Of a stretch of 64,000 nt of DNA, positions 12,737 to 41,883 are shown in pieces. Numbering within the stretch: the stretch's first letter is position 1; each line of letters opens with the position of its first letter. The stretch is taken from the IMG/VR virus record IMGVR_UViG_3300046171_000308; one strand, given 5' to 3'. The DNA is from an uncultured virus (IMG/VR IMGVR_UViG_3300046171_000308). Its lineage: Duplodnaviria; Heunggongvirae; Uroviricota; Caudoviricetes. Both the position numbers and the translations under genes were made by a program. A model generated the notes under the pieces. That model worked only from the letters and a program-made list of their open reading frames with translations. It searched no databases and was not told the DNA's origin.

Positions 12737-12768
12737 CCCATGCAAGCAAGCGTAGCTTATACTAATAG

Positions 12769-14316: not shown

Positions 14317-14320
14317 TTAA

Positions 14321-16054: not shown

Positions 16055-16063
16055 TATAATTCC

Positions 16064-16804: not shown

Positions 16805-16845
16805 GTCCGTCACATAGGCCAATGCTTATTATACAATAAACGTAT

Positions 16846-16995
16846 CTACTCTGCTAATGCTTCTTCGAAAGCATCAACAATAGTCAACAGTGCTTCTGCA
16901 CCGCCTTTGCCTTTTACTTGCATGTTTGCATTTATGAAAGCTAATAAGGATTCTGCTATTTCTTTGGGTAGTTTAATGGTTACTTCTTCTGTCAT
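16846..16995 (-). CDS. small helical protein (49 aa, MTEEVTIKLPKE...)
   Basis: Translated by hand; TTTAAG box 23 nt upstream; lies between fibre genes. Confidence 0.6.
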   Translation of the reverse strand: MTEEVTIKLPKEIAESLLAFINANMQVKGKGGAEALLTIVDAFEEALAE

Positions 16996-17027
16996 AGTAC
17001 GCCCATGTTCGCTATGAACTTAAATCT

Positions 17028-18905: not shown

Positions 18906-18962
18906 TGGGCTCACCCATGCTAAAGAGGCTTAGAGCATAAAGTTACCCGATTAAGGGTCTAA

Positions 18963-20656: not shown

Positions 20657-21152
20657 CTTCAATAAGTAATGATGGTACATCCATTAATACTGTGGCCATG
20701 TTACTAATGTAATTTTCAAAACCTCCCTGCTCTTCTACTGTTCTAATACTCATTTCTTCTAATGATTCTTCTACAAATGCCAGTAAATCTTGGTCAGTAA
20801 TGTCAGGAGTATTGAATATAACCACGGTGGCTTCTGACCAAACGAGTAAATCATAACCCGTGCTAGTTTGCATAGGCTCCTCTGTTGATGGGTAAGAGTG
20901 TAAATCTATGTGAACATCAGCAGTCAAAAGTGCATCTCTTACTTTTTGTACCCAAGGATGAGAATAAGCTCGAAGACGGTTTAAGTCTAATATGTCTCTA
21001 TTAGTTGTACCTACTAAGGTAGTAAATGGTATTTCTATTTCTTCTAGTGCTTCTTCTAGAAGTGGTAGAAGCTCTAAAGCACCAACATCGCTATTGCGCT
21101 CTCCGTCTCCGCTTGGTGACTCGCCGTGGGGGACTGTGATTACAACTGCCAT
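20526..21152 (-). CDS. Zn-dependent hydrolase (N-formylglutamate amidohydrolase/M14-like fold)
   Basis: ITVPHG, DLNR, HIDLHSY and LIEV motifs. Confidence 0.65.
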   Translation of the reverse strand: MAVVITVPHGESPSGDGERNSDVGALELLPLLEEALEEIEIPFTTLVGTTNRDILDLNRLRAYSHPWVQKVRDALLTADVHIDLHSYPSTEEPMQTSTGYDLLVWSEATVVIFNTPDITDQDLLAFVEESLEEMSIRTVEEQGGFENYISNMATVLMDVPSLLIEVNEGEGLNYRQAASALAVGILNYLDSLSEPFPLDDEPLLVEDE

Positions 21153-21868
21153 CGTGACAAGCGTAGACGCTTTAGGTTATTGTCATTACCGGTCTTTTCT
21201 TTCTTCTCTCCTACTGGTGCATGTTTTTTCCACACTCCGTCGCCTACAGTGGCATAAAACCAGTACCTATTCTCGGGAGCTTGGAAGTAAGGTAGAAGCT
21301 CTGAAAAGTGGTCAAGGTTACGAGAGCGTAAATATTCCGGGCGGTCTTCTACTTTGAACAGTATCTTATTTTCAGATTGAGACCAAATAGTCTCGTTGAG
21401 TAACTGTATACGTTGAGTAATGGCTAATCCTAGAATTCCCTGGCCAGCCCCTACTGTCCATAATCTTTCGATTCCATCATTACCTCCTTTCTTTACCATG
21501 AGTTGAACCTCATCAATTGCAAAAACCCGTTTTATTTGTTTGTATCCTCTCGTCTTCGAAACTTGAAAGGTTAAGTTAATGACACGTGTCAATTCATCAC
21601 ATCGCTTATTTTTCTCTGGACTTGGTCTGTAGATTATCGCTGGAGTTTTCGATAACAATTTAGCATAAACTTGCATAGGGGAGGTACAGATAACTCCTAG
21701 GTCAGCATAATCGTCATCATGCTTAGGGTCAAAGAAGATAGTATGGACTCCCTGGAGCTGTAGCTTTTTGAGGATAAACCTGGTTGCATACGTCTTACCT
21801 GAGCGTGTTTGACCTACAATAGCAGTATGACGGCGACTTATGTTAGTGAGTAGTCGCTTGGCTACCAT
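21140..21868 (-). CDS. genome packaging ATPase (A32/FtsK-HerA superfamily)
   Basis: Walker A GQTRSGKT, FFDPK, Walker B FAIDEVQ, and ITQR motif; 242 aa standalone, typical of tailless icosahedral viruses. Confidence 0.85.
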   Translation of the reverse strand: MVAKRLLTNISRRHTAIVGQTRSGKTYATRFILKKLQLQGVHTIFFDPKHDDDYADLGVICTSPMQVYAKLLSKTPAIIYRPSPEKNKRCDELTRVINLTFQVSKTRGYKQIKRVFAIDEVQLMVKKGGNDGIERLWTVGAGQGILGLAITQRIQLLNETIWSQSENKILFKVEDRPEYLRSRNLDHFSELLPYFQAPENRYWFYATVGDGVWKKHAPVGEKKEKTGNDNNLKRLRLSRWQL

Positions 21869-21898: not shown

Positions 21899-22384
21899 TT
21901 AGCCCCTGAGAAAGAAGAAGAGAAGACCAGCAGTAAGAAGGGGTGTAGGTATCTGTAGAGGCTTGGTTTGCTTAATTGACTGAGCAAGCTCGGGGAAGTC
22001 TGCTCTAAACTTTGGAACTAGTTTCTCTGCGTCATATAGGCGCATGTTACTTACTGGGTTCATTGTAGTAGGAGCATGTGTATGACCATAACCAAGTGCA
22101 TGTCCATATTCGTGAGCGATTAGCTTTTCGTCATTAGCATAACTACCGTCTATTACGATTAGAGAACTAGTAGCATCTCCCAAAGTAATACCTCTAGGGA
22201 AGTAACCCCTACCAGTTAGGTTGTGAACTTGTTTCATTGTGGGGGTAGAATACCACTCCATGTTATCTTTGTTTAGCTGACCGTTAACAAATACGACCCA
22301 GTCCTTGTGAGCAAGGGTAGCTATGGTTACATTATTACTAACACCTATGACTTGGTAACTCTCATATTCTCTCGCTTCCATCAT
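21899..22384 (-). CDS. matrixin-like metzincin metalloprotease with C-terminal membrane anchor
   Basis: HEYGHALGYGH followed by a Met-turn (TTMNP); hydrophobic C-terminus. Confidence 0.82.
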   Translation of the reverse strand: MMEAREYESYQVIGVSNNVTIATLAHKDWVVFVNGQLNKDNMEWYSTPTMKQVHNLTGRGYFPRGITLGDATSSLIVIDGSYANDEKLIAHEYGHALGYGHTHAPTTMNPVSNMRLYDAEKLVPKFRADFPELAQSIKQTKPLQIPTPLLTAGLLFFFLRG

Positions 22385-25300
22385 CTCACCCCTGCCTCTA
22401 CGGCTAGCTTGTGGTCGGGTTTACCAGGTCCCGTTGATGAATCTGCACCTACTACGAAGGCATAAACTCTTCCCGCAGCCCATTGATGTTGTTGAACCCC
22501 AGGTCGATGCCCTGTTCGCCACGCTGCTAGTCCTTTAGAGTATATTTTCTCTAATATCGACTTTTTGATTTTAGTTTCTTTGCGAATACGATTCAGAAAC
22601 TTTTGCTTGGATGTTTTACCAGATGGTTTGTAGTCTTTATCTATATTCTTACGATATATCTTGTAATACTTATCACGGTGCTTTGAGCTACCTATTTTTA
22701 ACCCTCGAGCTGTTGCTTTAATATCAGACTGCCAGAATTTGTATGCTTCTGGGTCATTTACGTCGTATTTGTAGCCTTTGTCTATTTCATCTTCCGCAAT
22801 CATTTTCTCTAGTTTGGTTAAGCCCTTAAGATATCTAGTAGGGACTTTTTTACCTCCGGGTGTACGACTAGGATTTTGTAAAACCATTTCATTTGTATCA
22901 CCTTCTAATAACTTGAACCCCATAGACTCATACCATTGAACTAGATGCTCTTTCGAGGCTAGGTGTATTCTTTCTCCTTTAGTTTTTGATAGTAACTCAT
23001 TAATTAGTAGCCTTCCTAAGTTTTTACCTCTATGGGCTGGAGAAACCTTGACTAACTCAAGCCATATTTTATCGTCTTTCCTATACCAAAGCAAGAACCC
23101 TATATTCTTCCCCTCTTCATGCAAGTCTATTCTTTGCATGTCTTTGGGGGACTCTGGGTCGGGGTCGGGATAGTGACTAATCTTTGGTGGATTCTTACGC
23201 ATCTCTTTTGTTTTCTTCTTCATCTCCTCAATGAACTTAGCATATACTTTTTGCGCGGCCTTTATTCCGGGGGTTTGATGTGCATGGAATCTTGCTCTTT
23301 GTTCCATAGCCATTGCTGCTTGTATCTTATGAGCGTGGGTTTTACCGGAACGCTTGATTATGTTTACTGACTTAATAGCAGTTGCTTTATCTTTGAACCC
23401 TAAGCCTTTAATTGTGTTCTCTTTATCTTCGTCCGTAAATAAGTCAGAATGCTCGTCCATGGGTTGCCCTTCGTATTTCTTAGGTATTCTATGTGCGCCA
23501 CCGTGGGGGTTTTTGCGGAAGAATTCTGTTTCGGTCAAAGCACCATGCGGTCCTATGAAAATTTCTTCTTCTGGGTTTGCATCGCTGACAGTTCGTTCCT
23601 CATCATGCAGATACATGACAGGAACAGGTGTATCTGCATGACCCATTTGCCTCAATGCCTCCATACGATGCCCCCCTTCTTGGCTTGTTCCAGAGTGGTT
23701 GATTGTAGGCATAGTCATGACTTGCCCATTTTTCAAACCAGCAACAATCGACATTATATAGTCGATTCCCTTATCCGGCCATCGCACTTTTGCGCTTCTT
23801 TCAGGAATGCCGTAGCCACCTGCGGTCAGCAGGTCAAAGTAATCGTTAGGAGACATTCGCACTACTTTTCCAACATTCACTACTTTCGTCCAATCGTATA
23901 GGTCGTCCTTTTCTTCATTGTATAGGTATCTTGAGGTTGACGTAATTGGGTCTTCCCCGATTAGTCCTCTTTCATGCTTCGATGCTTCGATGATTTCTGA
24001 ATCCCAGTTGTATTCGCTTCCGAACACACTTGGTTTTTCCATGTACGCCATTCGAACGCCGGGGATTCCTGATTCAATTACTGGGTTGGTTTTGGGTCGT
24101 GAAGTCGAGTGGTAGATGTTCAGAGGTGGGTTCATCCTCGCATACTTTTCACCCAGCTCATACTTACCACTAACACGGGGAATCTTACCCATAGACTTGA
24201 GGGAGGAAGTTGCAGTTGAACCAATTACATTTCCAGCCTTCCAAGAGGCATAAGTTGTTTTAGCTTGTTTCATAGTCTTGAATGGTGACTTCTTTACTCG
24301 GGCTTTGTTCCAAGGGAATGGCTTAGAGCGAGGAGGGTTAAGTTGAGAGATAGAAATTGTTTGTTGGTAAAGTGCTGCTGGACCTTGATGTAGCTCTCCG
24401 GGGAACATAGCGATACCTGGAGGGGGTGGGTTACTCCGAGTGGAAGGCCCGTTAATTACTTCTAATTTCCCATACTTTCTTTTTTCTGTCATACCAACCC
24501 AAGGTACGTCTGGACACTTAGGCATGTTAGCTATGCCTTGTTTTCTTGCCCATCTCCAAGGGTCATGCGCCCATACCCATAATCCAAGTAATCTTCTACT
24601 TGGTTGGTTTTGTGTTTTTTGTTTCTTAATTAGTGGCCCTTTAGTAGATTCTTTAGCCTTGTTGTAAGGAAATCCACTATGACGCTTGTTGAATCTTACT
24701 TGAGTCTTACACCAGTCCCAGTCAGTTTGATTCCATTTATCAACGGCCTTAGCATAAAAAGCTTCGACAGTTCTCGGCTTGCGATAGTCTATGTAGTCTT
24801 TAGGTCCGGTTAGTCCTAGTTTCTTACGCATTCTGATAATAGCACGGAAACTGTTTTGTCCGCTTTTTATCCCCATCTTCTTTGCTTCTGCGGGAGTTAA
24901 ACCTGCTACCTTAAACCAAGGAGATTTCATAAATGCCTTCATCTCTTTGTTCTTCATGTTAATTAATTCTGACCACTCTTCAAACCAATCAAATAGGTCT
25001 TTGGGAGGATTTTCTTCTTCCTCTTCTTCGTTTAATTGTACGGTGTCAAATGGTAAGTCACTTTGGGGAAATTGGTTTTCATCCTTTTTGTTTTGAGCCT
25101 CTATCTGGCGTTTTCTTTTTCGCTCTCTTCTTTTAGCTTCTTTTCTATCTAAAAAGTCGCTTTCCATAACACCTGTAGTATCAATTCCAACCTCATCTAA
25201 TTCGGGTTGAGTGGTTGGTGCTTGAACAAACTCTTTTCCCAAATATGTACGCCCTGTTGGCGGCTTATAATCAAGGCCAAAGTCATCAAGTGAAAGCCTT

Positions 25301-27939
25301 TTAGGAGTTTCTTCCTCTTCGTCTTCATCTTCTTGTGATGGGTTGTTTAGTGGTAAATTATGTAACACTCTTCTAGCTCCGTCTAAGTAGTTGCCTTTCT
25401 TCATCGTAACTCTTAGGTCAAAGTTTACTTTCTTAGATTTCTTAACATTTTCAGTTGCTACCTTTGCTCTACGCTTAGCTTCTTCCTTTGAAAGTCCACC
25501 CCTTCTAAAGATAGCTTTAGCACGGTCTTTCTCTGTTAGCCTTGGGTCAGGGTCAAGATAGATAGAGAAAACATTGGGGAATCTGGCTTCGTAATGCTTC
25601 TTGCCTTGTAGTGTAACTTCTACTATGGCGTACTTACCTTCAAAGTCATCGAAGACTCTACCGTAATAATGGCCGTTTCCACTTACTACATACTCTACTA
25701 ATTTACCTTGTTCAATCATTTTCTTAAATGTGGCCTTAGTAACAAACTTGCGGTCAGGCCCATCGGTAGGTCGACGAGGGCGTGTAGTGTAGGTTGGTGG
25801 TATGCTAGAGTCTGGTAAGTGTCTGTGTAGATATTTGAGAACAGTACTTTTGCCGCCTCCTGATGGCCCACTAATGAGAATGATTTGTAACTTGCCTGCG
25901 TGACGGGGATTTACTACCACTTCAGGCTCTACTGGTTCTAAATCAATATCGGGATAAGATTCTTTGAGCCTTTCACCAACTGCTTGGTAAATTAAATTTG
26001 CATCTTGCTTACCTAAGTCTTCGGGCACTGGTTTACCTACGGTGATGTTTAGATTACTGGAACTAAGAGCGAAGTTTGCTTTGTAAGGGCGAGATAAGCC
26101 AGGAACTACCTCGGCATTGAACCTCATAGAGTATAAATGCCCACCAGAGCTTCTATCACCTGGTGGTGCTAAATTACCATCCTCGTCAGGCACTACGCTT
26201 TGATGGAATTCTCCTAACAGTTCCTCGACTTCTTCCATAGCTAAATTAATCAGGCCATAACTCGATATCCATTTGAGTGTTGTTACTTTTGGTGGTGGGT
26301 TTGGCAAGACATAATTGTGGTCTAAGAAATCTCTTAGCTGGTCTATCATCTGTACCATAGCCTCTTGCTTGTAAGCTTCCCCGCCTTGTTTGGTATACAT
26401 TGTAGGGTGATGAGTAATCATATCTGCCATGTGAACTAGCTTGCAAGCACCGTAATAATCTCCAGCTTGAGGTAAGAAGTCTGTATCTGTAATACCTTTA
26501 CGACCTAGGTCGGTGTTAAGTAAAAAGGTTAGGTCTTCGGTTAACTTATCGGGTAATTTTAGTTCAGGCCCTATTTCCTTTCTAAACATCTCTGCGCCTA
26601 TTTCCCATCCTGGTTCTTTAGCATTTTTTTCTCTTAGTTTAGCTATATCATGGTAAAGTGCTAAAAGATATACTACGTCCATATTGTTGTAGTTACCTAT
26701 TACTGGTTGAGATAGATACTGTCTTAACTTCTTACGAGTGTCACTATCTAGCCCATATTCATTTAGTTTAAACAATCTACCTTTGGGTTGTTTAGTAGTC
26801 GGCGCAAGGTGATGCTTTAGCCACCAGTAAACATACATTGTATGTCCGTACTCGTCTGCGCCATAGTGTTCATGTGCGTAATCTAAGCCTTTTAGTTCTT
26901 CTAAAGCCTTCGCCACGTATTTGTCTTCAACCCTGATAGGCGGGTTTGGACGTAAGGCGAGTAAGGCTGAGAGGGGGGAAGCGGACTTTTTAGCAAGCTT
27001 GCTGCGTGAGTTCTTACGCCTGGGACGAAAGGAAATCTTTGCTATGTTACTGAATTTTTTATTGAACCTATCTACCATTTCTTTGGTAATTCGATTCTGG
27101 AAATCAATATCTGGACTATCCTCACTCACCTCCTTCTTAGCCACTTCTTCTCCTTCTTCTATCAGACCGTCTATCGCATCTATGAAAGCATCTTCTTCCA
27201 TCCTTAGATATTTTTCTTTACCACCTTTTTTACCAGTAATCTTGAAGTAATCTAACTTGTGCTTCATAACTGTATAGAAGTCATTTATCCCCCACCTGAA
27301 GTGTAGGTCTAAGTAAAACTGTATGTCATCAGCGGAGGTTAGACTTGGCTCGTCCTTAGCTGGGTGAGTATGATAAAACATAGTAGCACCTTTTAGTGCT
27401 TTGTTGATTTTTATTTTTGGCATGATGAACGAAGCTCTGCGATGCCATAAATCGTCTCCTTTTTGCCAACCATAAGCCTCTCCTGCGTAGGTTACTCCTT
27501 TCCATAGCCTTTCATGTAGCTGGTCTTTGTTCTTTACCGTATATTTAGTAAAATGCTTTTCTGGATTGTCTATTAGCATTTCGTCCATTTCTTTATCAAA
27601 TTGGCTAGGGCTTATTGGGTTAGGTCTAGCATAATACATATGACCTCTTACTATAGTAACATCCCCTGGTGGGTTTGTTCTTGCATGTGTCATTCCTTTA
27701 GCAGCAAACGATACTAAGCTATATTTGTCTTGTACAGGTAAAGCAAAGTGTGTACTGGTAAGTTGTTTCAGTGCTTGCTTTACTTCTTGAGCAGATAACT
27801 TTCCTCTTATGTATATGCCCCAATTCTTACCTTGTAAGTCCACTACAGACTCTGTTACATAGTGTCCGCCTATCGACTGACCAGCTCCGGGGAATGGAGT
27901 GTTGTCAAGCAACGTTTGAATCTTCATTTTCTGATTCAT
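22381..27939 (-). CDS. 1852-aa multidomain polyprotein (JAB-like, HD, guanylate kinase, DUF3140-like, ParB-like, GNAT, DUF5824-like)
   Basis: HTHP..S.DD; LYHDIAK/ADM; GPSGGGKST+YTTRPRR+HYYG; INM...WAHDP; QEGGHRMEAL; VSPAHRGKNLG...WYESMGF; KGLAAWRTGHRPG..QHQWA..RVY. Confidence 0.85.
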   Translation of the reverse strand: MNQKMKIQTLLDNTPFPGAGQSIGGHYVTESVVDLQGKNWGIYIRGKLSAQEVKQALKQLTSTHFALPVQDKYSLVSFAAKGMTHARTNPPGDVTIVRGHMYYARPNPISPSQFDKEMDEMLIDNPEKHFTKYTVKNKDQLHERLWKGVTYAGEAYGWQKGDDLWHRRASFIMPKIKINKALKGATMFYHTHPAKDEPSLTSADDIQFYLDLHFRWGINDFYTVMKHKLDYFKITGKKGGKEKYLRMEEDAFIDAIDGLIEEGEEVAKKEVSEDSPDIDFQNRITKEMVDRFNKKFSNIAKISFRPRRKNSRSKLAKKSASPLSALLALRPNPPIRVEDKYVAKALEELKGLDYAHEHYGADEYGHTMYVYWWLKHHLAPTTKQPKGRLFKLNEYGLDSDTRKKLRQYLSQPVIGNYNNMDVVYLLALYHDIAKLREKNAKEPGWEIGAEMFRKEIGPELKLPDKLTEDLTFLLNTDLGRKGITDTDFLPQAGDYYGACKLVHMADMITHHPTMYTKQGGEAYKQEAMVQMIDQLRDFLDHNYVLPNPPPKVTTLKWISSYGLINLAMEEVEELLGEFHQSVVPDEDGNLAPPGDRSSGGHLYSMRFNAEVVPGLSRPYKANFALSSSNLNITVGKPVPEDLGKQDANLIYQAVGERLKESYPDIDLEPVEPEVVVNPRHAGKLQIILISGPSGGGKSTVLKYLHRHLPDSSIPPTYTTRPRRPTDGPDRKFVTKATFKKMIEQGKLVEYVVSGNGHYYGRVFDDFEGKYAIVEVTLQGKKHYEARFPNVFSIYLDPDPRLTEKDRAKAIFRRGGLSKEEAKRRAKVATENVKKSKKVNFDLRVTMKKGNYLDGARRVLHNLPLNNPSQEDEDEEEETPKRLSLDDFGLDYKPPTGRTYLGKEFVQAPTTQPELDEVGIDTTGVMESDFLDRKEAKRRERKRKRQIEAQNKKDENQFPQSDLPFDTVQLNEEEEEENPPKDLFDWFEEWSELINMKNKEMKAFMKSPWFKVAGLTPAEAKKMGIKSGQNSFRAIIRMRKKLGLTGPKDYIDYRKPRTVEAFYAKAVDKWNQTDWDWCKTQVRFNKRHSGFPYNKAKESTKGPLIKKQKTQNQPSRRLLGLWVWAHDPWRWARKQGIANMPKCPDVPWVGMTEKRKYGKLEVINGPSTRSNPPPPGIAMFPGELHQGPAALYQQTISISQLNPPRSKPFPWNKARVKKSPFKTMKQAKTTYASWKAGNVIGSTATSSLKSMGKIPRVSGKYELGEKYARMNPPLNIYHSTSRPKTNPVIESGIPGVRMAYMEKPSVFGSEYNWDSEIIEASKHERGLIGEDPITSTSRYLYNEEKDDLYDWTKVVNVGKVVRMSPNDYFDLLTAGGYGIPERSAKVRWPDKGIDYIMSIVAGLKNGQVMTMPTINHSGTSQEGGHRMEALRQMGHADTPVPVMYLHDEERTVSDANPEEEIFIGPHGALTETEFFRKNPHGGAHRIPKKYEGQPMDEHSDLFTDEDKENTIKGLGFKDKATAIKSVNIIKRSGKTHAHKIQAAMAMEQRARFHAHQTPGIKAAQKVYAKFIEEMKKKTKEMRKNPPKISHYPDPDPESPKDMQRIDLHEEGKNIGFLLWYRKDDKIWLELVKVSPAHRGKNLGRLLINELLSKTKGERIHLASKEHLVQWYESMGFKLLEGDTNEMVLQNPSRTPGGKKVPTRYLKGLTKLEKMIAEDEIDKGYKYDVNDPEAYKFWQSDIKATARGLKIGSSKHRDKYYKIYRKNIDKDYKPSGKTSKQKFLNRIRKETKIKKSILEKIYSKGLAAWRTGHRPGVQQHQWAAGRVYAFVVGADSSTGPGKPDHKLAVEAGVR

Positions 27940-30900
27940 AGTATTCGTCTCCTAAGTCGCCTTCTATAACAGAAAAGATGTGAGAATCTTCGTCCGCCTC
28001 TGTTCTTGCGAAGACGCTATTGATAATGGTTTCTTCGGCGGGCGTATATAGGAAGTCTTCCTCTGCATCCATGAATTTCATTCCTTTATCGAGTAAAGGT
28101 ATTTCCCAAGATTCGTAGTTGTTTAGTGCCGCAGTTAGCCACTCTGCTTTGGGATATGGCTCCTTGTCCCACTCTTTGAACCTCTTACGATATTCTCTAG
28201 TTCTTTCGTTCCATAAAGAATTATTAGAAGCTGGGTTAGACCTAATAGGTTCTCGGTTTAAATCACTAAATCCTTTTGATGCAGTAAATGCTCGGTTCTT
28301 CATCTTTGATTTGATGAAATTTCTTTTATCTTCTTCGGATACTTCTTTCTCTAATAACCCGGATAAAATCTCTTTACTATCCTCTTCGGATGTATTTGCT
28401 ACCTCCTTGGCAAAGGCACGACCAAACTGCTTTGCATCTTCGATATTTTGCTCGTCGGTGCGATGATATTCACGTGATAGTAATTTCTTTAGTGGAAATT
28501 GTTTTGTTTGCTGCATGTCTATGCCATCTCTTGACCCGGGAATATTCGGGCCTCTTTCGTCGTATATCGCATCAGCAGAAGCAAAAGATAGCCCAGTCAT
28601 TTCTGGGTAGTAATCAATACCAGTGCCAATGTGCTGTCTTGCGTTATCCCAAATAGGACGGTAATGTGGCTTCCAACCTGACTTTCCTCTTCTTGGAGCT
28701 CCGCGCTCAACGGGGTCGATATATTCTTTTTCTAATGTTGCACTAACATCTCCGAATGAAATATTGCCAGCTGGAAACTGAGTTCCTGTTGGAGATGCAG
28801 GGCCACCGGCTGCAATATATCTTGGTCCACGCGCATAACCATACATTGGATTTGTTCTGACACGTGTTACTTTCATTATTGCTGGGTTTTCTAACTCGTC
28901 GGCTGCAATGGTTCTGACTTTTTTGGTGCTTATTTCTAACCCACCAGCTCCTTCTGCTTGTGTGTGAGAAATATCTCTTGGGCTGTCGCCTGTTTTATCG
29001 GGGCGAATAGCAATAATAACCGGAGGACCAATTAGCCTTCTGCTGGTAAATGCACCTTGAGGCTTCAACCGATAACCACGCTGACGTGCTGAGGGCGATT
29101 GACCGGCTTTTGTTGATTGTTCTAAAGAAAAACCATAAGCCAGTCGAGTATTCATACCTAAGCTTTCGTACTCTACTTCGACTACTACTTTAGGGTCTAC
29201 CCAATATATCTCAGGTGCGGTCTCATTGACTATTGAAGGTACAACATTAGCAAAGCTTTTGCGTTCCCAATCATCGTCTCTTCGCTCACCAAGTATCTGA
29301 TGGAACAGGTCTCGGCGTTTCTCTTCAGTGATACGGAAGTTACCTATTCGCTGAAACGCTACATAAGTAGGGCCTTTAGAGGTTCTTTTACTTACAGCTA
29401 CAACTACTGTGGGTAGTATTTCTTTTTGGTCTTGCCAGTATTTAGCACTGGTGTCAATGCCAATAATGACTGCATCTAGTGTGTATTTTCTCTTTATCTT
29501 ATAGCGGCGACCATTAGCGTGAATGACTAGTCCTTCGTTTTGTAATTCTTCTACGTTACGCTTCCAGTAAGCCTCAAAGTTTTCAGTTATGTTATCGGTT
29601 ACTACTTCGTGTGGCATTATTGAAATTCGGTCATTCTTAGCAGAAGCAAACAAAGCGAGACGCTGAGCAATAGGTATGTCTCTATCTATGTCATTGCCGT
29701 CAAATGAAAGAACATCATGTATGACGAATTTTAGTCTTCTAAATGCTTTATTGTCATGAGTAGAGATTTTACCTTGTGGTTCAGCTTCTTGTTTAGAAAC
29801 TATACTGGTAACAGCCTCCCTACGCGCTACTAGACCTTTATCGTTGTAGGTTACTATTTCTCCGGTGACTATTGCCTCTGTTACTCCCACTTGGCGGCAT
29901 ATATCTTCAAAGGCGTGAGTAAGGTAATTGTCCCAACCAAACAACCCACCTTTGGTACTAATAACTGCACGTTGCTTTTCGCTTTGTATAGAGTCTATCA
30001 TGCCCTCAAACTTTTGGGTCTTGTCTAGGCTTTGCCCGTTTACTTTGAATTTGCCCATTATGTTGAAAGCCATTACGCCAACCCAGCCATCTAACTTGGG
30101 CATCATAGTAATTGATTCGTTTTGCAAGACTTCTTCGCCAACATTTTTCTTAGATATCTCTGTCATTTTTGGGGATTTCTTCCACTCTTCTAAGCGTTTT
30201 ACTAACTTGTTATCTGAATCATTGTGTCCACTTGCAGTACGATAGCAAGGATAGCCCGCATCCACGTACGGGAAACCTTCACCTAATCCTACTTCTTGAC
30301 AAAACATATCTACTCTGGCTTTGAGTTCGTCGAATTTAAGCAAGACATTCTCTGGGTGAGCGTCTACCAATGGTTCGAACTTAGACAGTTCACTACGTTT
30401 AACTGGTATTCTAACTAATCCTGTTGAGTCTTCTAATCGTCCAGGCTTGAAGTGCATACCAAAAAAGAACCCCATACGCTGAGTCGTTTTGTACACGCTA
30501 GTATCAACCAATATTTTTTGTTCTGCTATTGCCTTATTGCGATACTTAACAGAGTTACCTACTATTGCGCCAGCTTGATAGCCGTAAGTTTCTGCAATAT
30601 TCTTGATATCGCTAGCATAATTGAATCGCTCTCCCTTAATTGGTGCATACCATATCTGATAGTTGCGACCGCTAAACATAATCAAATGATTGCGGCCAAC
30701 TTCGTCGAGCATTTTACTAATCTTTGCTACCACTTCTTTGTGCTTGCTTTCTTCTAGCTCTGCTGGGTTATCTATGTCAATCCAGCCAAACTTGGGGTTA
30801 CTTCCATCTTCGTTTAGTACCTCAAGCCACAAATCTCTAAGTCCTTGGTGCATACCACCCTTTAGTGAGTAATATGATGTTGAGTCTACAAACTCTTCTA

Positions 30901-31420
30901 TGTCTTCTTGGCTTGAAATGATAACTTCGCCCTTCTTGCCGTCAATATCTATTCTACCAGATGAACTACTAAACCATACAGTAGCTATTGGGTGGTGCAT
31001 GGTCTTTGCAAGTCTGAACGGCAGAGTCTTTTGGTTGTACTCTAAAATACGCTCTTTGATGATAGCCATTTGTTGTTTGCCTCTATCATCCTCTACTTTG
31101 AATGGTTTAGGTGACCAATCTCTAGTAAATGGCATATCACTTGGTGGCCCGTATGCTTTGGTATAGCTTTCAATTAACTGTGGCAAGATAGCTTCCATAT
31201 AGTCATCAGTAGTGAAATTCATCTCTGAAAAAATAAATACCGGTTCTCCATCTATCTTTTTGTTAGCTCCGTTGTACATGATACCATTGATGAAGAAAGT
31301 GCGACGTGTCAAAAAGGACTCAAGAAAATCTCTGATTTCGGGTATACTTAGTTTGATATTAGCAATGTATGAGTTACGAGCGTAGTTCTCGAAAACTTCT
31401 AGTAAACCGCCTATCTTCAC
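27905..31420 (-). CDS. AEP primase-polymerase fused to ATP-dependent DNA ligase (LigD-like)
   Basis: AEP: IDID, FSGRNYQ, VD, H.K...TGLV; ligase: PKLDG, TGEIV, FVIHDVL, EGLVI, YKIK; OB domain: DAVIIG, P.VVVEVEY, IRPDK. Confidence 0.88.
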   Translation of the reverse strand: MKIGGLLEVFENYARNSYIANIKLSIPEIRDFLESFLTRRTFFINGIMYNGANKKIDGEPVFIFSEMNFTTDDYMEAILPQLIESYTKAYGPPSDMPFTRDWSPKPFKVEDDRGKQQMAIIKERILEYNQKTLPFRLAKTMHHPIATVWFSSSSGRIDIDGKKGEVIISSQEDIEEFVDSTSYYSLKGGMHQGLRDLWLEVLNEDGSNPKFGWIDIDNPAELEESKHKEVVAKISKMLDEVGRNHLIMFSGRNYQIWYAPIKGERFNYASDIKNIAETYGYQAGAIVGNSVKYRNKAIAEQKILVDTSVYKTTQRMGFFFGMHFKPGRLEDSTGLVRIPVKRSELSKFEPLVDAHPENVLLKFDELKARVDMFCQEVGLGEGFPYVDAGYPCYRTASGHNDSDNKLVKRLEEWKKSPKMTEISKKNVGEEVLQNESITMMPKLDGWVGVMAFNIMGKFKVNGQSLDKTQKFEGMIDSIQSEKQRAVISTKGGLFGWDNYLTHAFEDICRQVGVTEAIVTGEIVTYNDKGLVARREAVTSIVSKQEAEPQGKISTHDNKAFRRLKFVIHDVLSFDGNDIDRDIPIAQRLALFASAKNDRISIMPHEVVTDNITENFEAYWKRNVEELQNEGLVIHANGRRYKIKRKYTLDAVIIGIDTSAKYWQDQKEILPTVVVAVSKRTSKGPTYVAFQRIGNFRITEEKRRDLFHQILGERRDDDWERKSFANVVPSIVNETAPEIYWVDPKVVVEVEYESLGMNTRLAYGFSLEQSTKAGQSPSARQRGYRLKPQGAFTSRRLIGPPVIIAIRPDKTGDSPRDISHTQAEGAGGLEISTKKVRTIAADELENPAIMKVTRVRTNPMYGYARGPRYIAAGGPASPTGTQFPAGNISFGDVSATLEKEYIDPVERGAPRRGKSGWKPHYRPIWDNARQHIGTGIDYYPEMTGLSFASADAIYDERGPNIPGSRDGIDMQQTKQFPLKKLLSREYHRTDEQNIEDAKQFGRAFAKEVANTSEEDSKEILSGLLEKEVSEEDKRNFIKSKMKNRAFTASKGFSDLNREPIRSNPASNNSLWNERTREYRKRFKEWDKEPYPKAEWLTAALNNYESWEIPLLDKGMKFMDAEEDFLYTPAEETIINSVFARTEADEDSHIFSVIEGDLGDEYYESENEDSNVA

Positions 31421-35552: not shown

Positions 35553-37760
35553 TCAAATATAAATCCATGATACTTTACCGTCTGAATCAACGTCTATGTA
35601 CCAGTCTCCGCCCATAATAACCATCATTTGTGACCCGTCTTTGTTCTTAACATAATACAAGTCTGGCTCCTTGAATTTCTTGCCTGACTCTTCGTCTACG
35701 CCAAAGTTGTGAATATATTTCTGTTTATTGTCTCCGGTTTCTTTACCAGAGCGATATCCAATTGACCAAGCTTTGCCAAGACCAATCCATGTATCCCCAA
35801 AGTCAATTTTTTGTTTCTTAACACTACTAGGGTTTTTCTGATGAAATTGCTTATACATTTCTTTGGCTTCTGCGACAGTTCCTGGGTTAGTCCTGACCAC
35901 ATCACGGGGCGGATAGTTTCTGTCTACTGTTGAGTTTCCATAGAACTCTCGCGCATAAGACAAACCTACAGCGAATCTTTGAGCTCTATCGGGGAATTCC
36001 TCATTCATTTTCTTGTTACCCATGAAGCGCTCGATGTACTTCTTTAGTGGTTCCTTACGCATGCTGCCGTTTTTACTACGCTTCTTGCGAGGCTTTGGAA
36101 GAGGGTTGGATTTTGGGTATTCTTTGTGTTGTTGGAGGATATTGAAGAGTCGCCACTCTTCCTCTTCAGTTGAATCGCCATCTGGTGAAAATCTCCGAAG
36201 AGCATTTATCACATCATCGGTGTTGGTGAAGGAAATTCCCAATTCCTCTTCGACTGCTTGGCGGTGTGTTTTTTGGGACTCTTCATCACTCTCTTCTTCC
36301 ACCTCTTCTTCCTGGGTTTTGAAACCCTCCATATCTGTGCCGAACCTATCCATGAAGGCTGCTTCTGCTTCTGCTTTCAGGCGTATGGCGTCTGCTTCTG
36401 CTTGTGCTTTCAAGACGGTCCTCATGTCCTGTGCTTCTTCAGACGGAAGCTGTGTTGGATTGCCGTCTTTGTCGTAAGCAACTGGTGGATTGGAGAATAT
36501 TTTGTTACCATAGAACTTCGCAGCGTAAGTCATAGCTACGGCGTAGCGCTGCTTGCTGTTGGGAAAGTTGCTATTCATCTTGGGGTCTTCCATAACCCGG
36601 CGGATGTACTTCTTGCTTGGTTCCTTACGCATACGCCCTGCTTTGTCACGCTTCTTGCGTGGCTTTGGTGGGGGTCGAGGCGTTGGAGGGTTAGACCTCA
36701 TACCGTCTTCGCCATAAACTACTTTCTCGGCTGCTTCTGAGGAAAGACCATCTTCTATGAGGTTGCCCCAGCGAATTATGTTTTCTAATGAATTTAAGTC
36801 CCTTTCTAACTCTGTTTTTTCTCTATATGCCTGTGTTCGTCTTTCTAGTTCTTTTGCTTCAAATTCTACAATATCTGTGTCTTCCCAATAATTTTGAACT
36901 GGGTCTGGTAGAGAATCTATAAATGCTCGGTCTGCAGCTCGTATCTCCCTTCGTTGCTGTATAATTTCCGGGGTCGTAGAAAAAGCAGAGGGTGGCATTC
37001 TGTAGCTACCTACTGGCTCATAGCCTTCTCGTCGGATACGTCGGTCTTTTACATAATTTTGGACCTTTTTCTTGAGTCTATCGAACGCACCATTAGGCAA
37101 AGGAGGTTGTTCATAAGCATGTGTTGATGAAGCCGAGCTCATCATAGGATTGGAACGCGGGTTGTCGTTTCCGGTATATGCACTAATTGACGGATAAACG
37201 CCAGGAATGAACAGGGATTTGGCCGCATCACGGAATTCTGGAGTGTCGTCAAAAAAGAAATCTACATCGAATTTACTTTTGAGATGTGTCAAAACGTTTA
37301 ACTTATGCTTTATCAGATTCTGTTTGCTGGGATTCCCGCTATGTAAGAAAATCAAATCTTCTTGTAAAGCATCTATTGGAAATCCGGCTTGCTGTAGGCT
37401 TTTCTTGGTAGCAGCTAAAACAGAGCGAGGACGACCAGATAGGTATGCAATAGTATAACCGCTTTTAGATAATCCTCTAACAAAATTAGTCGTTCCTGGT
37501 ATAGCTGTGTCCATTAATACGTACTGATTTTGATTTAGAAATTCAAACCACTTCTTTGATTTGGGCTTAAGTCCTTGACGACGAGCAACTCTTTCTCGAC
37601 GAGATAAATCAAACAAGGTATTGTCTAAGTCGAAAACTGCCAATTTAGAAGTTACTTTTCTAACACTTGGCTGGTTTTTTCTTGTTAGTTCTAAGTTGCA
37701 TACCCGACATGTTGAGGCATGGTCGGGGTTTAGGTGGTTGCAGTGTGGGCACTCATTCAC
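35553..37760 (-). CDS. multidomain protein: zinc ribbon, HAD phosphatase (PNKP-like), duplicated basic module and C-terminal domain
   Basis: CPHC/CRVC; FDLDNTL, LSGR, K and FFDD HAD motifs; two copies of PKPRKKR...KKYI.R.M...FP...QR.AV. Confidence 0.82.
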   Translation of the reverse strand: MNECPHCNHLNPDHASTCRVCNLELTRKNQPSVRKVTSKLAVFDLDNTLFDLSRRERVARRQGLKPKSKKWFEFLNQNQYVLMDTAIPGTTNFVRGLSKSGYTIAYLSGRPRSVLAATKKSLQQAGFPIDALQEDLIFLHSGNPSKQNLIKHKLNVLTHLKSKFDVDFFFDDTPEFRDAAKSLFIPGVYPSISAYTGNDNPRSNPMMSSASSTHAYEQPPLPNGAFDRLKKKVQNYVKDRRIRREGYEPVGSYRMPPSAFSTTPEIIQQRREIRAADRAFIDSLPDPVQNYWEDTDIVEFEAKELERRTQAYREKTELERDLNSLENIIRWGNLIEDGLSSEAAEKVVYGEDGMRSNPPTPRPPPKPRKKRDKAGRMRKEPSKKYIRRVMEDPKMNSNFPNSKQRYAVAMTYAAKFYGNKIFSNPPVAYDKDGNPTQLPSEEAQDMRTVLKAQAEADAIRLKAEAEAAFMDRFGTDMEGFKTQEEEVEEESDEESQKTHRQAVEEELGISFTNTDDVINALRRFSPDGDSTEEEEWRLFNILQQHKEYPKSNPLPKPRKKRSKNGSMRKEPLKKYIERFMGNKKMNEEFPDRAQRFAVGLSYAREFYGNSTVDRNYPPRDVVRTNPGTVAEAKEMYKQFHQKNPSSVKKQKIDFGDTWIGLGKAWSIGYRSGKETGDNKQKYIHNFGVDEESGKKFKEPDLYYVKNKDGSQMMVIMGGDWYIDVDSDGKVSWIYI

Positions 37761-40700
37761 CTTGTGGCCCCCCTCTGTCTAAACCAACGTTGAATACTCG
37801 GCCTAATTGACGACCGATGTAATTTAGGCTACTTCTACTAAATGCCTTGCCTTTCCCGAATATTGACTCAAGTTGTTTGATTAAGGTAACAGAGACTTCT
37901 TCGGCCATTGTAGATAGTTCTTCTGTTAGTACGCGACGTGCTTCGTTTCTGCTACTAAGCGGTTCCATCTTGTTTAGAAGCGTCTGTAAGTAGTTTAAGA
38001 ATGAGTCATCTAAATCGGTAGCTTGGAAACCGTTGTAAAGTAAATATCCTATTTCATTTTCAGCAGTTTGAGTTTGATACAACTTTTGCATTGCTAATCT
38101 GTTGTTACTACCGCCACTGACTAACTTTGTATTACTAACTACTTGGTTTGTAGCTGTTTGATACATAGACCCATCTACTAAACCTGGGAAGTTTCGTGTT
38201 AATAGGTCAAAGATTCTACTTTGAAGTAGCTCTACACCCTGCAATATGCCGGGTGCTCTACGTGCTCTAGGTCTGGCTAAGTCTTGCCTATACATATCTC
38301 GTGCGAAACGGCGCACCTCGCTAACGTCTGGAGCAAACCCGCCTCCTGCTTGTCTTAGTCTTAGGTTTGCATCAATGGTGAGTCCTTCTCTTTGTGCATA
38401 TCCTCTGAGATATCTTCGGTAACTAATACTGGTGTCATCAAATGCGGACATAATATCTCTCATAGCGGTATATTCATCCATGAGTAACATAACCAAGTCT
38501 GCGGGGAATAGAGTTTGTAATCTATCAACCTCAGCGAAATCAGACATTATGCCGTTAACAGTATCATGGGTAAAATTTAGTTCGTTGCCTATTAACCGCA
38601 TAAACTCCTTCATCTGAGCCACGTAATTTATCTCTGTTTGTGGTGGCGGGTTATCTGCATCGACCCCGAGTGTCATCAATTGGTCTAAACTTGTACTTAC
38701 GTCGTCGATTGTTGTTATTTGGATTGTACTGCTCCTAATAGCTCTTGTCGCAGCTTCTACTGCGGCAATTGGTTCATCGGTTAGTATAGCAAGACATAAT
38801 TCGTTTAGGTTAGAAATATGAGATTCAACTGCTAATCGGGCTTCCCCGAACAAATCTTCTACTGCACTGATAATTCCTGCTTTGTCGGGTCCTGGCTCTT
38901 CTAGTGGTCGGAAGTATCTTCTGCCCTCGCGCAGCGAAGCTACCATTTCTGGGATAATCGCTTCGTGAAGAGCTTGTATTATTGGTTCGTTAATAGTGCC
39001 TCTAATCTCTCTCTCCATGCTATCTATGACATCATTAAGGTTATTTCTCATTTTTGTTCTTGCCCCGGCAGTAATAGCAGGAGTATCTATATGACCAGGT
39101 TCGTGAGGGTTAGCGAAAACTTCCTCTTCCTCTGGCCCATCTTCGTCGTTTAGTAACTCTCTTGCTACTATATGGGCTAAATATGCACGGAGCCCTTCTT
39201 CGTCTATGACCCCGTCTCCTAAAGCTGGGAGGTCCTCAGTAACACGCCCAATAAATCTCTCACTAAACGCATCACTAGCGTCTTCAAAAGTTGTACGTAT
39301 ATCATCAAGCACTGTTGATACTTCTGAATGTAGATTCATCTGGCTCAAAGAATAATAAACCAAAACTACCATGAATCTAATATCGTTCTTAGTAGGCGTG
39401 TAGTTATACTTTAGTTCTGATAACTTGAATGCTTCTTGTAATAGTTGGTAAATTGAAGGACCTTTGGAGTGTTGCGTTGGCATGATTGTAGCACTATAAG
39501 AAGTATAGAAACTAGGAGTCTTGAATAGAGTATTTTTTGTGTTGTCTTCGCTTAATTTTGCTATTAGAGCTCCTACGCTGTTATCTTCAGCGGCTGCTGA
39601 ATTTGCATCTATGACTGCTTGTATTTGTACATCTGCATTGCCGTCTCCAAACTCAGCTCCCAATACTTCGTTCCCTATACCGACAAATCTTGGTTTGATG
39701 TCTTTAAGGAATTCTATAGCGTCTGCATTGATATCGCCGTCATTTGAAAGGGCCTCCCGACCAAGTGCTTCTAGTTCTAGAAGTCTTGCTATAAAGTCAC
39801 CTACTGATTCAAAGTTTTTGCTAAATCTTTCAACCGAACCCACTCCCATGTTAATTCCACTTGGGACTAAGAAGTCTGTAGCGTTAAATTCACCTCCGCC
39901 TAATCCAGTAAGCTTATCTTTGTGACGACCTAAAGTCTCCATCATACTCAGTACAAACTGTTGTGGCCAGTTGGTTGGGATTGGTCTAATACCTGGCAGG
40001 TCTGTGAAGTAAAATGCTTGTTGGTCCTCCATTGCTCTAAATCTTTCAGCTTCTGTTGCTAGTGCTGCGGCTTGCTGTGTTTCAGCGATTAGAGTATTGA
40101 ATGCACTTTTATTGATGTCACTGGTATCTAGTGAGCGTGAAACTTTGTCTAATATAGAGTATATTCTATCGGTTAGGCGAGAAGTATTGAATTCCTTTTT
40201 ACTGAGTTGTTGTTGCTCGGCTTGGTCTAGGTATTTTATGTGCTCTTCTGCACCTGATACGACCTTAATCGCCCCGCTTTCTCTATCGTACTCTACTGGG
40301 CGTTGCATCTGTTGGAATGCTTTGAAAGTAGAATCTTTGAGGTTTGTAGGCATTGGGAAGAGAACAAGACCAGCACGAGGGAATAAGAAACCGGGGTGGG
40401 CTATCAAAGCTAACTCTTTACCCATGTAGAAGTCTTTGGGGTCAGTGGCTAGTCTTTTGACTAATGCCCTATAAGAAGCATCTAACTTGCGTAAGTTAGC
40501 ATCGGATTTCTTACCAGAGTTAGAAACTAAAGTACGCATACTTGGGAGGATATATTCGTTGATATACTTTAGTGCATTTACGTTGGCGGCACTGGTAACT
40601 AAATATGGCGCTAAAACTTTTTGAGCAAAGTTATCGAATATGTCTCTACTGTTGTCATAAGTTAAGCCCAGTTCTTGGAAAACAGATATTAGTGCACCTG

Positions 40701-41883
40701 CCTCAGCATTGTCGTCATCACCAATTTCAACTTCGACGCCGTCTAATGCACTATCAACAAATCGCTTGATGTCACTAGCTGTTTTATTTGACTGAAGCGC
40801 TCTAACAGGAGCTAAGTTAGCATTAACGTCAGTAATTGAACTACCCAGTCCTAGGCTTTCATAAGCCGCTATTGTTTCAGCTTTTGATGGGTTGCTACGA
40901 GGGCTGGTGCCTAACTTTGTTATTTTTCGCAAGTTGCCAATTAAAACAAAAGAGCCGTCGTCGACCCCTGCATAGACATCAAGATGTGGAGGAAATACGT
41001 CAAGTCGCCCTCCCAGTAAGTCCAAGTAAATGACATTATACGTTTGTAGTATGTTAGTCCCTTCTACCGCCTCGTGGAATAAGCCGAAATAATCCAGACT
41101 GGCGGTGGCACCAAGTCTAATAGGGTCTTCGAGTTGTTCGTATGTTTTTCTTGGTTTTGGAAGTGCTCTCTCTGGGGTAAACTTGTATTTGAAATTTCGC
41201 GGCGGCGGGGTTCTTCGTTGGGGGGGACGTGGCATTGGTAAGTCGTTTGGATTAGATTTGGAGTCTTCTAACATTTCTTCTAGACTATCGAAAACTACTG
41301 CACTACTCATAGTCGAGAAACCACTAGATGGGTTACTTCTACCTCTTTGATTTCTTTTGTTCTTGTTATCGCTTTTCTTGTCGCCTTTTAGGTTAAGACC
41401 AGTAGGAGGTGGTATGAAACGGTGAGCTGGTAATAGTGATTCACCCTTTCTTGCTTTGATTAGTTGAGATGTCCTAAGAGGATAGCGAAGAGCAGGAGAG
41501 ACAGGACGGGTGAGGAGAATAGAAAGAATTTGAGTTGCACCAAACAAACCATATTCTTCGACCATGTTATTGTAAAGAGCTGGAGTCAGGTCTCTTTCAG
41601 TTAATGCTGTTAAGCGAGCTTTATACATAGGAGTTGGAACTTCCATGAAACCTGATAATTCTGCTGGGTGAGCTGGATTGCTTCTAGTCGTTCCTTGTCT
41701 AGTATTAATTGTTACATGACTAGAAACTCCTTTAGTTAAGTCTCCTAGACTGATTTTCTTACCGTTTTCATCGGTCAGTGTGTAATCTAATACTTTACCG
41801 TGTGTAGCTAACAGTTGCTCTCTAACCCACTCATGAGCCTCGCCTAAACTTGCGCCTGTCAATCTATTGGGAATATTCAACAT
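37753..41883 (-). CDS. 1376-aa hypothetical protein with NP-delimited segments
   Basis: Long helical ORF; three RSNP, one KSNP, plus FANP and ADNP. Confidence 0.75.
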   Translation of the reverse strand: MLNIPNRLTGASLGEAHEWVREQLLATHGKVLDYTLTDENGKKISLGDLTKGVSSHVTINTRQGTTRSNPAHPAELSGFMEVPTPMYKARLTALTERDLTPALYNNMVEEYGLFGATQILSILLTRPVSPALRYPLRTSQLIKARKGESLLPAHRFIPPPTGLNLKGDKKSDNKNKRNQRGRSNPSSGFSTMSSAVVFDSLEEMLEDSKSNPNDLPMPRPPQRRTPPPRNFKYKFTPERALPKPRKTYEQLEDPIRLGATASLDYFGLFHEAVEGTNILQTYNVIYLDLLGGRLDVFPPHLDVYAGVDDGSFVLIGNLRKITKLGTSPRSNPSKAETIAAYESLGLGSSITDVNANLAPVRALQSNKTASDIKRFVDSALDGVEVEIGDDDNAEAGALISVFQELGLTYDNSRDIFDNFAQKVLAPYLVTSAANVNALKYINEYILPSMRTLVSNSGKKSDANLRKLDASYRALVKRLATDPKDFYMGKELALIAHPGFLFPRAGLVLFPMPTNLKDSTFKAFQQMQRPVEYDRESGAIKVVSGAEEHIKYLDQAEQQQLSKKEFNTSRLTDRIYSILDKVSRSLDTSDINKSAFNTLIAETQQAAALATEAERFRAMEDQQAFYFTDLPGIRPIPTNWPQQFVLSMMETLGRHKDKLTGLGGGEFNATDFLVPSGINMGVGSVERFSKNFESVGDFIARLLELEALGREALSNDGDINADAIEFLKDIKPRFVGIGNEVLGAEFGDGNADVQIQAVIDANSAAAEDNSVGALIAKLSEDNTKNTLFKTPSFYTSYSATIMPTQHSKGPSIYQLLQEAFKLSELKYNYTPTKNDIRFMVVLVYYSLSQMNLHSEVSTVLDDIRTTFEDASDAFSERFIGRVTEDLPALGDGVIDEEGLRAYLAHIVARELLNDEDGPEEEEVFANPHEPGHIDTPAITAGARTKMRNNLNDVIDSMEREIRGTINEPIIQALHEAIIPEMVASLREGRRYFRPLEEPGPDKAGIISAVEDLFGEARLAVESHISNLNELCLAILTDEPIAAVEAATRAIRSSTIQITTIDDVSTSLDQLMTLGVDADNPPPQTEINYVAQMKEFMRLIGNELNFTHDTVNGIMSDFAEVDRLQTLFPADLVMLLMDEYTAMRDIMSAFDDTSISYRRYLRGYAQREGLTIDANLRLRQAGGGFAPDVSEVRRFARDMYRQDLARPRARRAPGILQGVELLQSRIFDLLTRNFPGLVDGSMYQTATNQVVSNTKLVSGGSNNRLAMQKLYQTQTAENEIGYLLYNGFQATDLDDSFLNYLQTLLNKMEPLSSRNEARRVLTEELSTMAEEVSVTLIKQLESIFGKGKAFSRSSLNYIGRQLGRVFNVGLDRGGPQGE

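Follow-up and report, generated by a model that had tools for sequence, protein, structure and literature searches.

A modular protein with conserved Asn-Pro joints, possibly cut by a virus-encoded protease, in a marine archaeal-type virus-like element

An array of modules joined by Asn-Pro

We analysed a stretch of 64,000 nucleotides (the window) from an uncultured virus (IMG/VR record IMGVR_UViG_3300046171_000308), whose parent contig measures 130,004 bp and whose gene content fits an uncultured marine, archaeal-type, virus-like element of magrovirus group D. On the reverse strand it carries an open reading frame (ORF) of 1852 amino acids (aa), P0001, in which unrelated modules follow one another and are bounded by the dipeptide Asn-Pro (NP). 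Comparison with related proteins suggests that P0001 is very probably an array of exchangeable modules with a selected NP joint. The fuller reading, in which P0001 is a polyvalent polyprotein with NP joints cut by a virus-encoded protease, has in our judgement a somewhat better than even chance of being correct.

P0001 contains 16 NP dipeptides, whereas 5.0 are expected from its composition (3.2-fold), and NP is its most enriched dipeptide. Taken alone, this excess is only suggestive, because the largest of 5000 shuffles (mean 4.9, standard deviation 2.1) also reached 16. Across the family the excess is decisive: NP was enriched 2.7- to 4.7-fold in 61 of 61 proteins, with a total of 1012 compared to 283 expected. 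The dipeptides of P0001 lie at aa 89, 107, 125, 332, 547, 677, 866, 977, 1170, 1201, 1270, 1285, 1455, 1477, 1583 and 1689, and their Asn codons start at window positions 27675, 27621, 27567, 26946, 26301, 25911, 25344, 25011, 24432, 24339, 24132, 24087, 23577, 23511, 23193 and 22875, respectively. A preliminary description of this DNA, made from the sequence alone, had reported the 1852-aa ORF as a string of NP-bracketed segments. All the boundaries it listed were reproduced by these codon positions, whereas four NPs (89, 107, 1201 and 1270) lay outside its brackets. It had also named domains that span NP sites as an observation that would speak against it; no NP was found within any of the 44 Pfam hits, which cover 4716 residues in 13 proteins. 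As a counter-case, one relative harbours a glutaredoxin and a DUF7831 domain inside a single NP-bounded segment. The joints of P0001 are encoded by varying codons (AAC 11, AAT 5; CCA 10, CCT 3, CCC 2, CCG 1), and selection therefore acts on the peptide and not on the DNA.

Our observations already contradict an artefactual origin of the long ORF, by chimeric assembly or by fusion of several gene calls, and leave it next to no probability. In its favour, the data are metagenomic and one orthologue (L002) is interrupted by a frameshift, but sixty related full-length ORFs were recovered from many assemblies and the gene order is kept in four of four loci. Moreover, contigs of three other studies (X2, X3 and X4) matched the ORF without differences and ran across at least 11 of its 16 NP codons, extending 31 nt or more to either side. 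The NP codons at 27621, 25344, 25011, 24132 and 24087 were unbridged among the 32 matching pieces listed (there were 59 more). Loose contig ends were seen at 25012 and 25326-25333, in low-complexity sequence. An RNA run (X22) contained four identical 151-nt contigs, which do not amount to a demonstration of transcription.

Relatives exchange modules at the joints

When 5.8 billion proteins were searched with aa 1-900 of P0001, 60 further proteins of 1038-2979 aa were obtained, on contigs of up to about 140 kb. Full-length relatives in IMG/VR were L001 (the same as L003), L002 (frameshifted), L004 and L005, with match spans of 4152-6882 nt. The first ~880 aa are collinear between P0001 and these relatives, whereas the remainder is re-ordered, and the BLASTP segments end at NP. 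When five further orthologues were compared, an NP lay within 10 aa of 92 (70%) of the 132 internal break-points in homology; random placement gave 15% (never above 30% in 2000 trials) and no other dipeptide exceeded 26%, the sequence pairs in this statistic not being independent of each other.

Cutting the 61 proteins at every NP resulted in 1073 segments with a median length of 105 aa, and the 779 segments of at least 30 aa were clustered. They fell into 132 families of narrow length range, 61 of them singletons (at least 70% coverage of both partners). Between segments, 21567 BLAST pairs covered at least 70% of both, compared to 4944 partial pairs. The 61 proteins share a head in the order F3-(short pieces)-F2-F0-F4-F1, which is followed by a variable array, and represent 54 distinct architectures. 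Pfam domains found in the arrays of 12 relatives were SET, NUDIX, glutaredoxin, DUF5754, DUF7831, GNAT and DUF5824, while many variable modules have no known function. One module is joined via NP to differing neighbours in different relatives. The last module in the window ends with ...AGVR, and internal copies of it read ...AGVRK-NP or ...AGLIK[AED]-NP. Modules also have counterparts in other marine viruses, where they are small proteins on their own, and a tblastn search with the whole of P0001 against 50,697 phage records returned module-sized matches only. The separate folds, the stand-alone relatives and the exchange at NP bear out the preliminary description where it reads P0001 as a string of separate enzymes and not one enzyme, though the ParB/Srx label that it had given to one module was not confirmed (see below). 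The archaeal-type nature of the element, the metzincin-like gene coupled to the ORF and the longer joint motif found also in giant neighbours are additions to that description.

In L002 the orthologous polyprotein (9890-15632) is split by a frameshift near aa 590, for which a sequencing error, a pseudogene or programmed shifting are possible. In many of the proteins P0004-P0061, the linker between the JAB and HD domains has a cluster of joints, with three or four NPs spread over some 25 aa (pieces of 12, 7 and 4 aa) and no module between them.

The joint motif extends beyond Asn-Pro

The consensus of the joint reads [A/V/P]-[R/L/K]-x-N-P-(P). Counting one site per junction type (353 types), we found a Kullback-Leibler divergence of 0.75 bits at position -2 (R 31%, L 16%, K 14%), 0.52 at -3 (P, V, A) and 0.38 at +2 (P 22%), against a baseline maximum of 0.08. 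With one site per module family, Arg occupied -2 in 33 of 128 sites (4.3 times the expectation), A, V or P occupied -3 in 57 of 128, and Pro occupied +2 in 36 of 130; the divergence was then 0.46-0.49, compared to a 99th-percentile baseline of 0.20. The natural C-termini of two module families stop at the -2 Arg (...AGVR and ...TPEDR).

In addition, NP is avoided inside modules. For instance, in other lineages 68 of 75 instances (counted without removing duplicates) of a helical module with the motif EHSDLFTDE have an internal NP (...DENPKG...), whereas none of 17 instances in the polyprotein family and neither of two in L001/L005 has one. The stand-alone homologues of the module at aa 1285-1454 carry M, A or T before a conserved Pro, and Asn is found at this position only in the polyprotein. 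The sequence [RKL]-x-N-P occurs 11 times in P0001 (1.18 expected) and is also over-represented in three large neighbours, of 735 aa (4; 0.49 expected), 1376 aa (4; 0.87 expected) and 1171 aa (3; 0.54 expected). Other lineages also have multi-module proteins rich in NP (L007, L008 and others), which were considered as further cases and rejected, their NPs lying inside conserved domain motifs and not at joints.

Candidate processing enzymes

Three candidate proteases for the NP joints can be proposed: a metzincin-like protein, a retropepsin-like protein and, in cis, the JAB domain of P0001 itself. Metzincins are defined by HEXXHXXGXXH plus a Met-turn. In the metzincin-like protein, HEYGHxLGxGH and the Met-turn residue M108 are invariant in five of five sequences, the window copy reading HEYGHALGYGH. 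Its profile matched metzincins in 36 of 37 PDB matches (best E 0.0031), and the gene lies directly downstream of the polyprotein in four of four related loci. A complex prediction of its aa 1-140 with aa 1150-1215 of P0001 scored 0.02, which is evidence for neither side. The Met-turn reads M-N-P in all five orthologues, and a hydrophobic tail suggests membrane anchoring.

The retropepsin-like gene scored 29.3 bits with Pfam gag-asp_proteas (cut-off 28.2). It is located 11 kb from the ORF, on the strand opposite to its neighbours. We found 46 homologue clusters in metagenomes, one of which was named 'RimK/LysX family protein' by its source. One homologue lies on a contig of 117,698 bp, the same size as that of the polyprotein P0020, and the two may thus share a contig. 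Peptidase_C48 and Peptidase_C13 were not found in the contigs of three relatives, which are fragments.

Cleavage and its alternatives

In the reading that we favour, the chain would be cut at or beside Asn-Pro by a virus-encoded protease and the modules would be released as separate small proteins. The best candidate for this protease would be the metzincin-like gene, which is translationally coupled to the ORF, with the retropepsin-like protein and the JAB domain as further possibilities. Any module bearing the joint signal would be a valid insert, so that relatives could swap, add and drop modules at the joints, and, once freed, the modules would target the host as nucleotide and protein-modification enzymes. 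The strict dipeptide, the upstream preferences, the avoidance inside modules, the NPs in large neighbours and the coupled peptidase together have the look of a protease site. From these we infer cleavage, the enzyme, the scissile bond, travel in the particle and the role of the freed modules; the only pointer to delivery with the DNA is the position of the ORF near a HerA/FtsK-type ATPase and fibre-like genes.

Several points weigh against this reading. The case for cleavage rests wholly on sequence statistics, and most proteases disfavour Pro beside the scissile bond. NP89 is placed by AlphaFold2 (AF2) in a beta-turn within the folded N-terminal domain, and the IDIDNP conserved in the 1171-aa neighbour is a motif belonging to a domain; therefore, not every NP is a cleavage site. 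The EHSDLFTDE module opens with M-S-N-P-R at protein N-termini in other virus lineages, and the NP at the start of this module may therefore be partly intrinsic. The metzincin-like protein stays below the Pfam cut-off (Matrixin, 2e-4, 21.5 bits, cut-off 24), and the retropepsin-like gene was found neither in three distant relatives (fragments, 47-76% complete) nor by an IMG/VR pattern search. The assignment to magrovirus group D is based on gene content and not on a tree. Finally, the N4 virion RNA polymerase, ArdC and TraC1 are delivered uncut (PMC5512222).

The main rival to cleavage is a chain that stays uncut, an enzyme built as beads on a string, in which Asn-Pro(-Pro) would be structural punctuation: a helix or strand cap followed by a stiff proline linker. 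Such punctuation would keep neighbouring modules from misfolding together and would hence survive the insertion of modules. The beta-turn around NP89 and the proteins of other lineages that begin with MSNPR fit this explanation, as do the enrichment of Pro several positions past the joint and the ability of known polyvalent proteins to act uncut (PMC5512222). However, drift is usual in structural linkers, whereas here a single dipeptide persists across 353 junction types, together with specific residues at -2 (R/L/K) and -3 (A/V/P). The loss of an NP that other lineages retain inside a module, and the replacement of M, A or T by Asn before a conserved Pro only in the polyprotein, also speak against an uncut chain, which we regard as possible but rather unlikely.

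It is improbable that NP is the footprint of a cassette exchange at the DNA level, with AAYCCN as a short recombination joint and a peptide without function. Both codons vary with no nucleotide conservation beyond them, the preferences at -3, -2 and +2 are amino-acid ones, and five fixed bases would be too few for homologous exchange, even though modules are swapped exactly at the joint and AACCCA accounts for 8 of the 16 joints. We give marginally less credit still to a break that needs no protease, by cyclisation of Asn at Asn-Pro or by ribosome skipping as at 2A sites. The Asn-Pro bond is indeed the one cut by the asparagine-lyase chemistry of FlhB/YscU and reovirus mu1, and the tight beta-turn at NP89 would suit it, but lyases need a fixed fold around the Asn, whereas the majority of joints here are predicted to lie in disordered linkers, between unrelated flanking sequences. 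As for skipping, 2A peptides have an NPGP core with a conserved upstream D-x-E; here NPGP accounts for only 6 of 1012 NP sites, Gly follows NP in 26 of 1008, and the upstream residues are unrelated.

Relation to known systems

The family appears to be a variant of the polyvalent proteins described by Iyer et al. 2017 (PMC5512222). In both cases many unrelated catalytic domains are carried by one polypeptide of an invasive element in mosaic architectures; GNAT, JAB and ParB-type domains are among those described there, and P0001, with at least nine distinct modules, lies within the range of two to fifteen unrelated domains that characterises polyvalent proteins. We noticed no common joint motif in that study; it reports nearly all large polyvalent proteins from bacteria and a paucity in archaea, the supplements possibly listing more archaeal cases than these few. 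Of the polyvalent hallmarks, MuF, ArdC-N, SNF2, methylase, ART and DdrB-like ParB all failed to appear when P0001 and 12 relatives were scanned with Pfam. For polyvalent proteins, a zincin-type metallopeptidase is predicted as the processing enzyme (PMC5512222). In contrast to their embedded MPTase domain, as far as it is described there, the metzincin-like peptidase of the window has a small gene of its own.

Short consensus sequences also mark the cleavage sites of viral polyproteins and core-protein precursors, as with picornavirus 3C sites, the adenovirus protease and African swine fever virus pp220/pp62. With these our family shares a short site at each joint, mainly upstream preferences and the presence of the same site in several large virus proteins. 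However, those systems belong to RNA viruses or to DNA viruses of eukaryotes and have fixed products, whereas here 132 segment families occur in 61 proteins, the site is Asn-Pro and the cleavage is putative. PPEP-1, a zinc metalloprotease of Clostridioides difficile, cleaves V-N-P↓P-V-P (PMC10413326), and a protease that reads Asn-Pro-Pro therefore exists. PPEP-1 is described as needing Pro at P1', whereas Pro follows NP in only 243 of 1008 of our sites, and the peptidase here bears a metzincin motif. No description of an Asn-Pro-jointed polyprotein was found in the literature searched, supplements of the cited papers aside.

We put at just short of even the chance that these data reflect a sequence-specific Asn-Pro processing system in a dsDNA archaeal virus. 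The ORF would then be a plug-in library, in which small genes bearing [A/V/P]-[R/K/L]-x-N-P are co-expressed, perhaps co-packaged via the constant head, and then freed. If true, this would be the first known polyprotein strategy in an archaeal DNA virus, with a protease specificity not described for viruses, and would amount to a naturally occurring collection of over 100 families of small host-directed effectors from viruses of Marine Group II archaea. Cut joints would mean a new protease-site pair that is easily tested in vitro, would account for the simultaneous delivery of many effectors by an archaeal virus, and would give a cut-at-NP rule for delimiting and cataloguing more than 100 uncharacterised effector domains. 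If the joints are uncut, a strict dipeptide at hundreds of unrelated joints still calls for explanation. The polyprotein family is the most variable large feature of magrovirus group D, and one readable array gathers small proteins that other marine viruses encode singly.

Domains of the constant head

The coordinates of all features are given in Table 1. We modelled aa 1-676 with AF2 from an alignment of 27 sequences (mean predicted local distance difference test (pLDDT) 77.9, predicted template modelling score (pTM) 0.38) and compared the model with 48,161 chains by VIA-align, of which the scores are middling and come from a multi-domain 676-aa model. The pLDDT fell below 50 at aa 104-107, 310-334 and 544-549, which correspond to NP107, NP332 and NP547, between confidently predicted domains. 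Together with the low pTM, the model thus supports well that the modules are independent folding units. Foldseek on the same model returned rows of low TM, mostly for the HD part, and the profile of the constant head matched only guanylate kinases among PDB sequences.

Table 1. Features of the polyprotein ORF and of genes elsewhere in the window
Feature	Position in window	Strand	Basis or remark
Polyprotein ORF P0001, 1852 aa	22381..27939	-	single open frame; 60 relatives
N-terminal alpha/beta domain, aa 1-104, constant	27628..27939	-	family F3 in 57/61 proteins
JAB/JAMM-like metallopeptidase domain, aa 125-331, constant	26947..27567	-	invariant motif and VIA
HD phosphohydrolase domain, aa 332-546, constant	26302..26946	-	motif, Pfam, VIA
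TBP-like alpha/beta fold domain, aa 547-676, constant	25912..26301	-	family F4 in 57/61 proteins
Guanylate kinase, aa 677-865, constant	25345..25911	-	Pfam PF00625 and PDB
Acidic/basic low-complexity segment, aa 866-976	25012..25344	-	family F36, 3/61 proteins
Module F5, aa 977-1169	24433..25011	-	DUF3140-like start, Trp/Cys-rich conserved end
Three short NP-bounded pieces (31, 69, 15 aa), aa 1170-1284	24088..24432	-	families F7, F11
Module with invariant QEGGHRMEALRQ box, aa 1285-1454	23578..24087	-	87 shorter homologues, many stand-alone
Helical EHSDLFTDE module, aa 1477-1582	23194..23511	-	stand-alone in cyanomyophages; in 79 ORFs of other loci
GNAT acetyltransferase, aa 1583-1688	22876..23193	-	Pfam 2.8e-10
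DUF5824 module, aa 1689-1852	22384..22875	-	Pfam 2.3e-17; usual last module, ends ...AGVR
Metzincin-like zinc peptidase, 161 aa, hydrophobic C-terminal tail	21899..22384	-	start overlaps polyprotein stop
HerA/FtsK-type P-loop ATPase	21140..21868	-	61-65% identical in relatives
Retropepsin-like aspartic protease, 110 aa	10779..11111	+	DTGA, ILGRD; second candidate processing enzyme
1171-aa protein	27905..31420	-	~840-aa part common to relatives ends at NP845/857; tail differs
735-aa protein, HAD phosphatase	35553..37760	-	10 NP (2.7 expected); second, smaller NP-punctuated protein
1376-aa protein	37753..41883	-	four [R/K]-S-N-P sites in first 331 aa
MCM-type replicative helicase (OB, P-loop, lid domains)	61484..63943	+	marks element as archaeal-type

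In the N-terminal domain, NP89 is placed in a turn between the strands 72-88 and 92-104; the VIA Z score of this domain was only 6.6. The next domain had been described as JAB-like. The metal-binding and catalytic set of JAB/JAMM (MPN+) proteins is E...HxH...SxxD, with 7 residues between the second His and the Ser. Here E154, H190, H192, S202 and D205 are invariant in the 27 sequences, the spacing is 9 residues, and in the model the HxH motif sits where a strand ends and the SxxD motif where a helix begins. The JAB domain of P0001 gave no Pfam match, and Foldseek returned only weak proteasome-lid rows for the fold (E 0.16-0.2). With VIA-align, aa 137-310 reached Z 6.5 to JAMM1 of P. furiosus (5ld9; 105 aligned, root-mean-square deviation 3.4) and Z 6.4 to the proteasome lid (3jck). 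The invariant motif and the similarity to JAMM1 support the earlier label.

The HD label likewise held. Although the Pfam score of P0001 (19.7 bits) is below the cut-off of 22, the relative P0059 exceeds it with 27.0 bits; H366, H430, D431 and H510 are invariant and D506 is present in at least 90% of sequences, which corresponds to H...HD...D. In addition, aa 333-541 gave VIA Z scores of 12.4 (3wfo), 8.2 (GppA) and 7.1 (Cas3 HD). There is support for the JAB and HD domains being active, as predicted from their residues. The TBP-like part (552-676) showed a middling VIA Z score of 7.9 to TBP. The guanylate kinase was recognised by Pfam at 1e-13 (51.9 bits, cut-off 25.2) and matched the PDB at 1e-12 with the single sequence and at 6e-27 with the profile. 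This label, as well as those of the GNAT and DUF5824-like modules, is thus above the Pfam cut-off.

Variable modules of the array

F5 is the commonest variable module and occurs in 48 of the 61 proteins. Its proposed likeness to DUF3140 is weakly supported (E 0.095 here, 2-3e-4 in relatives, Atlas 0.87). The module at aa 1285-1454 had been called ParB/Srx-like. This label was not confirmed: Pfam gave no ParB match in 35 members, and no PDB profile match was obtained with E <1. A single Atlas row (0.90), from a cluster with ParB_N in 21%, is an unconfirmed lead. In the AF2 model of aa 977-1852 the mean pLDDT was 51, and about 30 over this module. A host-takeover or anti-defence role of the modules, as proposed in the preliminary description, is conceivable from the domain types. 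The core of the EHSDLFTDE module (window 23290-23350) stood out in a viral metagenome run by its much higher depth (68.6), flanked on either side by loose ends, and is common to abundant unrelated viruses.

Neighbouring genes and the carrier element

The gene order 735-aa protein, 1100-aa protein, 1171-aa protein, polyprotein, metzincin-like peptidase, HerA/FtsK-type ATPase and 208-aa protein is kept in four of four loci. The 735-aa protein has a Cys-rich N-terminus and contains a module of ~70 aa, NP-x-PKPRKKR..., twice (aa 357-424 and 552-625), each copy being NP-bounded. The 1171-aa protein had no Pfam match and a possible, weak similarity to an ATP-dependent DNA ligase (2cfm, E 0.19).

Magrovirus group D comprises marine elements of 110-140 kb with PolB, a thermosome, archaeal replication genes and no recognised tailed-virus capsid genes (PMC5434244, PMC10160649). 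It is an abundant and enigmatic element of the ocean, for which virus and plasmid are both debated (PMC5434244, PMC10160649). The parent contig of 130,004 bp, the MCM helicase of the window, and the thermosome and PolB found in three of three relatives' contigs each resemble this group as described by Philosof et al. 2017 and Xu et al. 2023; the polyprotein is not mentioned in the main texts of PMC5434244 and PMC10160649. Among the 46 ORFs of the window, which covers 64 of 130 kb, there was no portal, terminase or HK97 match. On the reverse strand at 14321-18914 we observed two fibre-like proteins, one of which has a collagen repeat and a weak match to the Peptidase_S74 chaperone. These sit oddly with the description of magrovirus group D as having no structural genes.

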